Shown here in pieces: positions 7,379 through 46,718 of a stretch of 64,000 nucleotides of DNA; the stretch's first letter is position 1; every line of letters starts with the position of its first letter. Position numbers and translations under genes: made by a program. Source of the DNA: Spironucleus salmonicida (lineage: Eukaryota); NCBI RefSeq assembly GCF_000497125.1, contig NC_090602.1, forward strand, positions 682,001 to 746,000, in the 5' to 3' direction. Below the pieces are notes generated by a model, which was given only the letters and a program-made list of their open reading frames with translations, was not told where the DNA came from and searched no databases.

Positions 7379-8830
7379 TCATTTCACAGCCTCCTGTACC
7401 TGTGCTACCTGGGCGAACGCCTCCTTCTGTACCGTCTTTATATCCACGTCCCCGGTATTCCGCGGCTCCAGTGGATCCACACCCGGCTCCAGCTTCGCGG
7501 GATGCATCTGGATCGGTGCGGTGGCCTTCGAGCTGCCGCAGGTCAGCAGCAGCTTCTTCTACGTCTGCATGAGGTACGCCGTGTTATCCTTCTTCCACTG
7601 CTCCACCGTGCTAGTGTTGTTCACCACGAACTCCGCACCCGTTCGGAGCGCGTACAGGTCGCACAGGTAGGGAACCACGCAGTCTGCGGGGGCCAGCACC
7701 CCCATCACGCGCACCATTTTCTCTACCTCCTACTTGTCCCATCCTGGCTTGAAAAATGGTGCAAATCGATCAGAGTTCGAGTTCTAAGACTCATCGTCAT
7801 CCAGAGCAGGCAGGACCGGACTGACAATATCAACAATCGACTATCCGTCGAGCTTGAGCAGTTGCTCCCTAAAATATTTCTCTAATTCTCCTATCGTTTT
7901 CAGCTCTTTCGCCTTTGCTTCCACTACTTTCAGAAATGCGAGCATCCGCCAAAGCAGGCTTCCGCACTTCGCATTCTTGCGGACCTCCAAAAAGTTCGCT
8001 TTTACGCTGAACTTGTTGTACATTGCCGTGTACTGGAAGTTGTGCTCCCGGCTCCCCAGGTCTTCCTTCGTTAGGCTGCCGGTTTGCAGCAGCTTGAAGT
8101 GGAACTGGAGTAGCTGCCCCATGCTGTAGCAGAAGTAGCAGAACAGGCCCATAACGACAAGCCCGCATGCGAACGCAACCCAAAGCTACCAGGTAGGTTA
8201 AGTCGTAAATATTTGTACCAGTGAAAATGCGATCTCCAAAATCGCAAAAAACGCACAAAATCCTATAAAAATAAGGATGTAGAAGTTCATTTTGTAGAAA
8301 TCCCAATGGTTCAGGAGGCCAATGTCGTGTCCAAGCCAGAAGCAATAATGATCATACCGTTGAATACAAAAATCTGAGCGGGATGAATGGGTTGAGCGCT
8401 GCGGCTTGAAAAACTTGCAGGTTTGGCAAAATCGCGAAGAGAGGCGATAAGAGAGTTTATTTATATGGAACGGTACTCTAGAAGCATGTGGCTACGTTAG
8501 AAACATATAAAATTGATTATCTGATTAGGTTTTTTCTAAATTTGGATATATATTCGCTTTAACAATTTAGGTAGAGTGAACAATAGACGGTACAATTCCA
8601 GGATCTATAATACCTGTTTTAATTGTTTGGTACACTGATAATATATATGTTAATGAAATTATGACATAAACTGGAATATTCATCGTGTATGGCACAAATG
8701 CGAACTATGCAAATGAAAAAAGTATTATGACTGGTACAGATAATAGCAGTACTGTAATCAATAGTTTTGAAGGTTATGGGCCTATAACGATTTTACCATC
8801 TCTGTAAATTGATAGTTTCCCAAGTTTCAT
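7379..8830 (-). CDS. DHHC-family protein S-acyltransferase (DHYC variant), 483 aa
   Basis: N-terminal TM segments, DPG motif, CQTCKFFKPQRSTHSSRSDFCIQRYDHYCFWLGHDIGLLNH, two further TMs, TKE motif. Confidence 0.9.
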
Positions 8831-9850
8831 ATTGAAAAGGTAAGTATGTATTTATTATTATATAATAAATTAATAAATAGATTAATCATTTTGTAGTATT
8901 CTAATTTAACTCATATATAATATATTATATATTTTTAAATAAAATTATTTATAAGATGGAAAACTAAATACAATTTGCGTGTTATACGGATGAATCGTCT
9001 GTTGATAATTTATCAAAAATTTAAATCAACATAAGATAGGTGTATACTAACTAACTCCCTTACTAAATCTAGATTATATAAATTTAATTATTGTTCGTAG
9101 ATAATATTTTTATATGTATTTGAAAGTAGGCACTCAAAATATTTTAGTATTTATTAACTAACAGATATTTGTAACAGAGAATTAATATCTAGAGTATAAA
9201 ATTTCAGTATAAAAAGTTTTGAACTCTAAGAATTACTTGGATATATACGAATGCTTTTTAAGTATAACAAATAAAATTATGTAATATTAAATAACTTATT
9301 TTTAGGATATGAAAGTTTTTACTCTTCTAAATTTTATTTATTGATATCTTCAGATTTCTTTCTCTGATTGTAGCTTATTAAAACTATCTACATAAAATAC
9401 TAATGATATCCCTTTTATTTTTAGTTTTTAATTAACTTATATCTTCACAGTACATATTGTGACGTCATTCAGAATGCTAGAAATACATTAAATATAATAC
9501 TATCAACTTATAGAAAATGTTAAATAAACCCAAGTCATTCCGATCGTAGCATTTAATAAAATTTTTATTAACTAAATTAATCAAAATATGAAGTAGATAT
9601 ATTATCACTAATGATTTACGAAGTATATGGGTTAATATCCGAAGTATCACTTTTAAAGTTACGGTAAGCCATCATGAGACGCTTTTATGACGCTTATTAC
9701 TGTTTACAAATATAGATCACTGAAAAGTAGATAAACTAGTGTCTAATTCTGAATAGAATCAGAAAAGTAAAATATTCAGTTATTTAAGTAATAACTAAAT
9801 TGTAAATTTCATCACGCAAGCGTTATCGTATAGTATAACTAGTAACACAG

Positions 9851-45100: not shown

Positions 45101-46718
45101 TTTACATTGTTCTTATTTAAACACAAAGTTTTTTAGCCTTAAGTAGAATAGGATCTGATTTAAGTATTTCAAATCTAATAGGAAGATATTATTATAAATT
45201 TTCTAATCTGGAAACAAAAATAACATCCAGCTCTACGCACCAGATATCCACAATAGATTAATGTATAATCTCTTTATCAATGTTATTTGAAAATTCTTCT
45301 TTTTCTTCAGGTAATAATGCATCCAACACAACAGATTTAACTAATTCTTGATATTTCAATGTCAATTTAGGAAGGGTTGACGTTATTTACTTTAAAATAG
45401 CAATATTTTCTTTAAAGAATGGGTCTAAAATAGGAGGAACAAACTAGTCTTTAGCACTTGCCCAAGTAAATGAAGGTTTGTTGATGATTTCAATTGCACT
45501 ATCACCACTTTTTTCTTTATTAAGAACGACTCCATTATCACGCTCGGGAAGAGTCATGAAATTACCAATACGGTTAGCAGAAATAACTGCATCAGAAAAA
45601 TAACTTAAAACCATAGGCAAAATAATAATTGCTATAGCTAAAAACTAAAATAAGAACAGCATTGTAAAAGCTTATGATAAGTCAAATCTATTTAAAGCTA
45701 GCATCGTACCAAAAGTAATTATAACCATTAATGGGGCTGCTATAGATTTTACAACTGTAAAAGTTGTAATTGCAAGACCATATTTAAATAATTACTATAC
45801 CTCTAGCCGTCTAATATTTTAAAGTCTTTTTTCTGAAATATCCTCCATAGAAAAAAGTTTTACTACTTTAATACCGTTAAGAATTTCAGTAGTTTTTTAA
45901 ATACGTAAATCTCTAATATTTGTACCTCTTCTTTACACTGCAAAAAGAGAACTCATAACAAGAGATATTACTGGGAAAACTAGTAAATATACTATTAATC
46001 CTAAAAATGTCATAGGATCCACATTAATTGCCATATATATAATATATGCACACATATCTAAGGGAATCTGGAATACTAATGGGAAAAAGTACATTAAAAG
46101 GGCCATTTTCTGCGTATCAGTATAAAGCAAATTTACTAAATTTCCTGTGGACGAATTTGATCTAGCATGGTTAGACAATCTCAAAATTTTATTATACAGT
46201 AGATCTAGAAAACCAGTATTAATACAGGTTGCCATTTTAAGTGACTTTTAATATGCTAATGCTTCAGAAAATGTCTTAGTATATTATGCTATTCCAACAA
46301 GAATTAAATAAGGATATAATTACTTAAAAATTTTTGCAAGACCTGTTAAATAGGGAATCATAACATATTTTGGTGTTCCAGCTAATAATTAATCACAATC
46401 AGCAAAGGTAGAAGGCATTAGTATCGATGTAAATTTTTAAACAGCAAGTGGTGATATTATTGCGCTAAGCGAAAGTAATGGTGTGGTTATAAATAATACT
46501 TATAGTTTATTAATATTAGCTTTAAGAGCAGTATTAAAAAAGCTAGGTTTTTTCCCTTGTTTTACTTTATCATTATAAGTCTTCATAATTTAAGCTGCTG
46601 TTACAGCCGGGTTGAACTCCTCATCTAGTTTTCCAATATCATTTCCCGTTACTAATTCACCACTTTTAATTCTTTTAATTAGTGGATTCATCCATGAGAA
46701 TGTTATCATGTCCCTCAT
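42174..46718 (-). CDS. ABCC/MRP-type full ABC transporter, 1514 aa
   Basis: [13 protein letters not shown]1 [36 protein letters not shown]2 [24 protein letters not shown]. Confidence 0.95.

Follow-up and report, generated by a model that had tools for sequence, protein, structure and literature searches.

Abrupt GC enrichment of near-identical repeats, with edges inside genes, in a 64-kb nuclear region of Spironucleus salmonicida

The stretch analysed here, called the window, is 64,000 nucleotides (nt) of nuclear DNA from the diplomonad Spironucleus salmonicida (NCBI RefSeq assembly GCF_000497125.1, contig NC_090602.1, positions 682,001 to 746,000 of the forward strand), and all coordinates are counted from its first letter. 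TAA and TAG are read as glutamine (Gln) in this organism. Of 20 predicted proteins compared letter for letter with the public collection, 17 had an exact match and three had none; 16 of the matches are on one and the same contig, and the non-identical entries that cluster with them bear the name S. salmonicida. The window carries four large palindromes with an arm identity of 99.3-100%, as well as a GC-rich island that belongs to a direct repeat, and its GC content rises abruptly at the edges of these repeats, including where an edge lies inside a gene. Translation with the Gln code and comparison with Pfam identified genes for a carbamate kinase, an ankyrin/coiled-coil protein, a DHHC palmitoyltransferase, an MFS transporter, a CFAP161-like protein, an ABCC-type transporter (ABC), CCT-zeta, a Rab protein and a SHIPPO-repeat protein. 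Several cysteine-rich membrane proteins (CRMPs) and a number of proteins without a family are also encoded. The closest named relatives of the CCT-zeta protein are from Hexamita inflata and Trepomonas, with 61% identity. A preliminary description of the window, made from its letters alone, had named some of the features discussed here, and all of these were present where it had placed them.

The arms of palindrome A lie at 3537-5791 and 5896-8150 and differ by 4 mismatches in 2255 nt; the spacer is 104 nt and the arm GC is 0.405. The left arm contains a truncated copy of the 3' end of the DHHC gene (3541-4308, plus strand), GC-rich non-coding DNA and an AT-rich inner part, and the outer edge of the right arm cuts the DHHC gene itself near residue 255. 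Palindrome B (9967-15255 and 23150-28437) has 29 mismatches in 5287 nt compared, an arm GC of 0.514 and a spacer of 7.9 kb (15256-23149). In its left arm are the genes p548 (9851-11497, minus strand) and p604 (13426-15240, minus strand), with an AT-rich middle at about 11567-12823. The arms of palindrome C (32442-33524 and 35308-36390) are free of mismatches over 1083 nt. The left one includes the 3' end of a gene starting at 31582 (the 31582 gene), an intergenic stretch with a GC of 0.48 and the 5' end of an LRR-like gene, and the right one has truncated copies of both, namely the LRR-like 5' end (35308-35532, minus strand) and the 31582-gene 3' end (36165-36390, minus strand). Palindrome D (36757-42486 and 47449-53178) shows 7 mismatches in 5730 nt and has a left-arm GC of 0.644. 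Its left arm encodes a CRMP (36738-38018, plus strand), p425 (38543-39820, minus strand), a second CRMP (40603-41493, plus strand) and the last 104 codons of ABC, of which a truncated 3' copy is found in the right arm (47449-47761, plus strand). Where an arm edge falls inside a gene, the partner arm thus holds a truncated copy of that gene, as is the case for DHHC, ABC, LRR-like and 31582. The 31582-gene fragment at 36165-36390 has been annotated as an 85-aa protein, and clusters with the 31582 gene. Besides the four palindromes, no DNA-level repeats of at least 150 nt were found within the window.

Total GC is 0.547 in the arms and 0.350 outside them. Across the 16 repeat boundaries the mean step in GC, comparing 200 nt on one side with 200 nt on the other, was 0.282, and random sets of 16 positions gave a mean step of 0.072 +/- 0.018, with none of 20,000 sets reaching the observed value. 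Ranked by size, the top ten GC steps of the window include eight that are located 27 nt or less from a repeat boundary; the other two are a step inside palindrome B and its mirror image. When all boundaries were superimposed, GC rose from 0.32 to 0.53 within a single 50-nt bin; the profile is flat on both sides, and there was no increase in GC with depth into the arm in this meta-profile. An isochore-like regional mutation bias, with borders unrelated to repeats, was rejected because the largest steps sit at repeat boundaries.

Four genes are cut by an arm edge, and each changes in composition along its length. The GC content at third codon positions (GC3), determined here from the annotated starts, is 0.73 in the 257 codons of DHHC (7379..8830, minus strand) that lie inside the arm and 0.34 in the 226 codons outside. 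For the 31582 gene (31582..32667, plus strand) the values are 0.63 inside (75 codons) and 0.24 outside (286 codons), for the LRR-like gene (33300..35279, plus strand) they are 0.53 (75 codons) and 0.22 (584 codons), and for ABC (42174..46718, minus strand) 0.61 (104 codons) and 0.24 (1410 codons). Pooled over the four genes, 338 of 511 codons inside the arms end in G or C (0.66) and 609 of 2506 do so outside (0.24; Fisher p = 2e-71). Gln codon usage changes with it: TAA/TAG/CAA/CAG, counted from the starts of the open reading frames (ORFs), occur 3/10/3/18 times inside and 105/27/29/19 times outside. The first and second codon positions shift likewise and more mildly, as for instance in DHHC (0.45 inside and 0.37 outside). 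The preliminary description had reported by eye that these four genes are AT- and TAA-rich away from the arms and GC-rich within them, and the counts bear this out.

These are single native genes rather than chimeras joined at the edge, at least for DHHC and ABC, since Pfam domains run across the edge in both: the DHHC domain (ORF residues 160-285) crosses it at about residue 255, and the second ABC_tran domain (residues 1264-1425) at about residue 1411. The 31582 gene is of unknown family, encodes 361 aa and has its last 75 codons in palindrome C. The LRR-like gene has no Pfam match, has its first 75 codons in the arm and is a paralog of the gene at 19993-22095 (LRR700). A two-segment likelihood scan placed the change point of GC3 27 nt inside the arm in the 31582 gene, and beyond the edge by 216 nt in the LRR-like gene and by 297 nt in DHHC; that of ABC falls 864 nt beyond the edge, with a 2-logL interval that includes the edge. 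At the 90% level the DHHC protein clusters with a 200-aa entry, a hypothetical protein of S. salmonicida, and with one of 247 aa, and the gene is apparently annotated in pieces elsewhere.

Paralogs within the window differ in the same direction. The CRMP in the spacer of palindrome B (16507..17379, minus strand) and that at 40603 in the arm of palindrome D share 45% protein identity and have a GC3 of 0.38 and 0.88 respectively, in agreement with the difference previously described for this pair.

The enrichment also shows in counts over all genes and in DNA outside the genes. Counting each arm gene once (from one arm) and classing the island gene p395 with the repeats, Gln is encoded by TAA/TAG/CAA/CAG 4/17/10/101 times in repeats and 213/86/99/96 times outside them, so that the change is seen at the third position (A to G) as well as at the first (T to C), and G-ending and C-ending codons rise together in repeats. 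In p425, the CRMP at 40603-41493 (CRMP296) and p395 (60177-61364) there are no TAA or TAG Gln codons at all, so that the standard code would yield the same three proteins. As delimited by our own gene set, 11,827 nt of the arms are non-coding and have a GC of 0.440, and the 12,961 non-coding nt outside have one of 0.279. Between the genes of palindromes C and D the values are 0.48-0.68 (0.57-0.68 in palindrome D), and most of the intergenic spacers outside are at 0.17-0.24. The GC of the repeats therefore lies above that of their unique flanks and spacer, non-coding DNA included, with the exception of about 2 kb of arm DNA at 0.21-0.36.

Selection on codon usage tied to expression level might be expected to raise the GC3 of arm genes. 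Such selection exists in S. salmonicida according to the accessible text of Andersson et al. 2007 (PMC1805757), and CCT-zeta, which lies outside the arms (53459-55081), has a GC3 of 0.50 with a preference for T- and C-ending Gly and Ala codons (GGT 21 of 39, GCT 27 of 54). This pattern of CCT-zeta fits the signature published for highly expressed genes in the same source, and would be a separate cause of raised GC3. In the arms, however, the shift takes place within one gene and so is not explained by expression; non-coding DNA and codon positions 1 and 2 shift as well, and G-ending and C-ending codons rise together. Moreover, the optimal codons given in the accessible text of PMC1805757 include AT-ending ones, GC3s is centred near 0.4 among highly expressed genes, and genes of high GC3 form a weakly expressed class. 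The within-gene shift and the non-coding enrichment rule out translational selection as the cause of the arm effect, and we give an expression-linked origin almost no weight.

It was also considered whether the palindromes could be artefacts of assembly, such as fold-back chimeras or over-polished repeats, which would make the link between arms and GC spurious. The very high identity of the arms and the presence of four palindromes within 64 kb would be in keeping with this. The region 42600-62500, comprising palindrome D and the island, was therefore compared with short-read contigs from two DNA runs (X1 and X2) of one sample, which is possibly the source of the window itself. Short-read contigs end at 47453 and 53178, which are the edges of the right arm of palindrome D, and the edges of the island match contig ends as well. 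The joint between 42600 and 47449 on opposite strands is present in all four runs. The spacer of palindrome D was recovered as a single contig that has the same arm end on both flanks in opposite orientation. In addition, the contigs show either arm's letter at four of the seven D mismatch sites (50479, 50919, 51182 and 52911), and the arms of the four palindromes differ at 40 sites overall. An artefact is, on this evidence, barely credible as an explanation. Contig depths, which are per-contig means and not copy numbers and were left unused, were 19.4 for the arm against 12.2-13.4, with 22.7 for the island, in X1, and 196.8 for the arm against 162.7-179.3, with 142.8-185.8 for the island, in X2.

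The GC-rich island at 59804..61392 is about 1.6 kb long, has a GC of 0.673 and lies outside all palindromes. It holds p395 (60177-61364, plus strand), the most GC-rich gene outside the palindromes with a GC3 of 0.96, and its edges are among the largest GC steps of the window. In the short-read data the island forms a contig of its own (X2 contigs break at 60259), and a neighbouring contig has the right end of the island at its start and, in unchanged orientation, the left end at its finish. A second copy in direct orientation would therefore lie about 7.7 kb downstream, past the end of the window. A paralog of p395 on the same chromosome-size contig matches it in 394 of 395 residues, the one difference being residue 28, whose codon is at 60259. 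As the island is a direct repeat, the GC effect is not specific to inverted repeats. GC tracks present near-identity and not orientation, and the spacer CRMP may be compared here: its nearest paralog (290 aa, 'Cysteine-rich membrane protein 1'), on the same contig and outside the window, is only 94% identical, and its GC3 is 0.38. A contig of a further run (X5) ends at 61433, 69 nt past the p395 stop, in a run of A followed by adapter letters, like a polyadenylated transcript; X5 was only guessed to be RNA.

Signs of conversion were found in palindrome B. The two copies of p548 are identical up to 9967/28437, and beyond this edge their tails, the last 38 codons encoding a membrane span and tail, are homologous and diverged (9851..9966, minus strand, outside the arm, and 28438-28553). 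Over all 548 aa, tails included, the pair is 97% identical. GC3 is 0.50 and 0.34 in the two tails (38 codons each) and 0.76 inside the arm. The diverged tails imply that the duplication is older than the arm identity suggests, and that the edge is the limit of homogenisation and not of duplication. Furthermore, the mismatches of palindrome B are clustered: a single patch of about 760 nt (12583-13339) accounts for 20 of the 29 and has mismatch-free sequence on either side, a pattern to be expected from patchy conversion tracts. The patch looks as if it was missed by the latest conversion or was converted from a third copy; it spans the AT-to-GC transition downstream of p604. Near-identity can thus be attributed to recurrent conversion, and not to recent origin alone, for palindrome B only, as palindromes A, C and D carry no such marker.

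These tails also bear on the order of events, as the segments might have been GC-rich before they were duplicated, either through the own composition of old multigene families or because the donor loci were GC-rich. The genes of highest GC3 (the CRMPs, p425, p395 and p604; 0.83-0.96, with 0.96 in p425) are of family or membrane type, and the captured gene ends reach only 0.53-0.73. AT-rich stretches persist within arms, some unduplicated genes have a GC3 of about 0.6, and the accessible text of a study of primate palindromes (PMC8981503) allows for elevated GC at formation. Against this order, four native genes change composition at or near an edge, with domains crossing the edge in two of them, and breakpoints would have had to hit existing GC/AT transitions at nearly all 16 boundaries. 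The diverged p548 tails, moreover, indicate an old duplication that has been homogenised since. A prior GC richness is therefore disfavoured by the gene-internal edges and we think it unlikely as the general cause, although the family genes may owe their extreme values to it in part.

A process that depends on homology and raises GC is well supported by these data. The best reading of it, which we hold to be probable, is GC-biased gene conversion (gBGC) between near-identical copies. DNA that has a near-identical partner, whether as a palindrome arm or a direct repeat, would be kept identical by recurrent conversion, and the repair of mismatches between copies would favour G and C. GC would then climb at weakly constrained sites, from about 0.2 to as much as 0.96 at synonymous positions and from about 0.2 to 0.5-0.7 in non-coding DNA, with a milder rise at first and second codon positions. 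The Gln codon TAA, which consists of A and T only, would move stepwise to TAG or CAA and from either of these to CAG. A gene that contains a repeat edge would then end up with a GC-rich duplicated portion and an AT-rich unique one. The steps at repeat edges, the within-gene shift, the non-coding enrichment and the signs of conversion were observed directly, and it is from these that we infer a GC bias of conversion as the cause of the enrichment. The preliminary description had proposed GC-biased conversion between arms; the edge-exact, homology-dependent GC and the conversion signs at p548 speak for it, the direct repeats require that it be widened beyond arms, and the bias itself is deduced rather than observed.

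A related possibility is that the bias resides in mutation, in that repeats which are frequently broken would gain AT-to-GC changes during recombinational or break repair and conversion would spread them, with no bias in mismatch correction. This predicts the same confinement to homologous DNA and the same non-coding enrichment as gBGC. The C-terminus of ABC could be polarised at the amino acid level, using a paralog and eight Hexamita sequences as reference, to which the last approximately 40 residues align poorly. Derived residues were found at 15 of 66 polarisable sites in the arm and at 19 of 165 outside (p = 0.04), an excess that could mean a raised mutation rate. The derived residues in the arm are not GC-ward on balance (5 GC-ward and 6 AT-ward of 15), which counts against biased mutation and, as a proxy, against gBGC alike, and the AT-rich identical segments of the arms are explained no better by biased repair than by gBGC. 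We know of no GC-biased spectrum of repair synthesis of such a size. A GC-biased repair mutation is inseparable from gBGC on present data, and we regard it as an improbable alternative.

GC remains elevated for some distance beyond certain edges. In DHHC this shoulder is about 300 nt long, with 49 of 100 codons GC-ending in the first 300 nt and 28 of 126 further out; in the LRR-like gene the counts are 29 of 66 and 99 of 518, and ABC has a weak shoulder of about 1.2 kb (134 of 400 within 1.2 kb and 201 of 1010 beyond), all three differences being significant. No shoulder in GC3 was detected in the 31582 gene (19 of 66 and 50 of 220, p = 0.33). It had been proposed earlier that raised GC extends past the present edges, which thus holds in three of the four genes and not in the fourth. 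The shoulders are one-sided: GC declines gradually on the flank with the functional gene, and drops immediately beside the truncated copy (0.10-0.22 left of 47449). If an arm had once been longer and its useless copy trimmed by deletion, a one-sided shoulder would be expected, and the same argument for former arm sequence is made in the accessible text of the primate study (PMC8981503).

Residual homology was not detectable beyond the four gene-internal edges (z -0.8 to 0.3), nor was it found beyond the inner edge of palindrome B. On the outer side of this palindrome there is weak residual homology (z = 2.2) that is in register and was confirmed at the protein level, and at the outer edge of palindrome D the signal is stronger (z = 6.7), in AT-rich sequence with indels, with an alignment that is unconvincing by eye. 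The flanks with residual homology, that is at the outer edge of B and probably that of D, are AT-rich. It is plausible but unproven that the three genes owe their shoulders to former arm sequence that has since lost its partner by deletion. The earlier suggestion that the arms were formerly longer is therefore consistent with the one-sided shoulders, although no homology is left at the four gene-internal edges.

Several observations weigh against GC-biased conversion as the explanation. Firstly, the arm stretches 4537-5536 and 11767-12566 have a GC of 0.21-0.36 and no mismatches, so homogenised DNA is not always GC-rich, and a rescue would need uneven conversion rates, selection or young insertions. 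These are parts of AT-rich, gene-poor stretches at 4537-5791 and 11567-12823 (mirrored at 5896-7150 and 25581-26837) that are mostly identical between arms; the preliminary description had itself cautioned that long parts of the arms remain AT-rich, rightly so for the segments at about 4537-5537 and 11567-12823, with a GC of 0.21-0.36. Tandem repeats (13 short arrays), tRNAs (none) and Rfam families (no matches) did not account for them. Lower conversion of the AT-rich arm DNA was tried as an explanation and is unsupported, as mismatch density did not track GC in fixed 200-nt windows (8 mismatches in 2200 nt and 27 in 11,930 nt, p = 0.24). Made base by base, the comparison gave p = 0.004, but this is driven by one patch, and two AT-rich stretches are mismatch-free.

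Secondly, some genes that are not duplicated have a raised GC3, namely Ank (0.59), LRR700 (0.60) and MFS (0.44), which are alone in their 90% identity clusters, and p216 (56894-57541) has a GC3 of 0.57 even though 53149-59833 is one contig in both DNA runs. In Ank (2223-3386), LRR700 (19993-22095) and p216, C- and G-ending codons are raised and GCG is frequent, as in the arm genes, and these three may be former members of repeats. The sequence of p216 had no exact match in the public collection. By comparison, the Rab gene, 520 nt from the island, has a GC3 of 0.24. Repeat membership is the main, and not the sole, correlate of GC3 in the window.

Thirdly, 33 of the 40 mismatches between arms are AT/GC pairs that may have arisen in either direction, and the amino-acid proxy in ABC showed no GC-ward bias, as described above. 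A search for DHHC homologs gave no match at E <= 1e-5. Lastly, under the equilibrium model of gBGC, a rise in GC3 from 0.22 to 0.96 corresponds to an approximately 85-fold shift in odds. A mammal-like repair bias of 70:30 would alone fall far below this, and a much stronger drive would be needed.

The cut genes provide their own controls, in that composition changes along a gene with a single promoter, strand and expression level. Neither expression nor gene family is thereby left as an explanation of the arm effect, and a process dependent on a homologous partner is indicated. To our knowledge, no sexual cycle has been described for S. salmonicida. If GC-biased conversion is indeed responsible, few known examples would be as strong or as sharply bounded, and this in an organism in which sex is unobserved. 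Such conversion would be relevant to gene finding and codon-usage work in diplomonads, to the dating of duplications, to the evolution of the CRMP regions and to the loss of reassigned stop codons under GC pressure. A bolder version would be an exceptionally strong homology-dependent GC drive outside known meiosis, which takes free sites from about 20% to more than 90% GC, with GC3 serving as a clock of the time spent in repeats, shoulders recording lost edges and TAA/TAG Gln codons being removed, and which explains the 'peculiar' mosaic noted in 2007. We put this forward tentatively, and consider that it may well not hold in full.

The patchwork of 20-30% and 60-70% GC in this genome has been without explanation since 2007, and was tied to duplications in 2022 only as averages. 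In the accessible text of Andersson et al. (PMC1805757), sharp shifts from 30% to 70% GC are called a 'peculiar phenomenon' and left unexplained. The accessible text of Xu et al. 2022 (PMC9509377) gives 44.7% GC for duplicated regions and 30.7% elsewhere, and brings in gene conversion only with respect to the CRMP regions, as a means of enlarging the repertoire of surface proteins. Within the accessible parts of these two papers, coincidence with repeat edges, a change within genes and gBGC as the cause are not stated. A literature search, with most subscription journals outside its coverage, returned nothing that joins Spironucleus with biased gene conversion. The GC shifts and the GC-rich duplicates are thus already published, and the edge-exact pattern within genes and its reading as gBGC were not found in print.

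The nearest comparison is with the palindromes of primate X and Y chromosomes, which are likewise large, have more than 99% arm identity and have arms above their flanks in GC even when genes are masked (PMC8981503, accessible text). On the X, arms of 46.3% and flanks of 41.2% GC were attributed to gBGC (Jackson et al. 2021, PMC8981503), and intermediate GC in spacers and flanks is read there as former arm sequence. The difference in primates is about 5 points, whereas here the arms are at 0.55 and the outside at 0.35, with GC3 up to 0.96. In contrast to the primates, the steps are sharp to about 30 nt, lie inside genes and extend to direct repeats, and the bias itself is a deduction.

Repeated blocks at chromosome ends are also similar. 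In Encephalitozoon cuniculi, the accessible text of PMC4704409 describes EXT repeats as repeated blocks of multigene families with a GC far above the core and sharp borders, for which gBGC is discussed, and the subtelomeres of Cryptosporidium canis (PMC10438818) are listed as a further case of GC-rich, repeated chromosome ends. Unlike these terminal blocks, the palindromes and direct repeat of S. salmonicida include fragments of housekeeping genes, and so provide a within-gene control. Finally, a gene that moves into a plastid inverted repeat becomes richer in GC and evolves more slowly, and copy correction is given as the reason (PMC5010901, PMC4524490). Plastids have one fixed inverted repeat and the changes in GC are small, whereas in the S. 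salmonicida window the DNA is nuclear, the repeats are many and the changes are very large.

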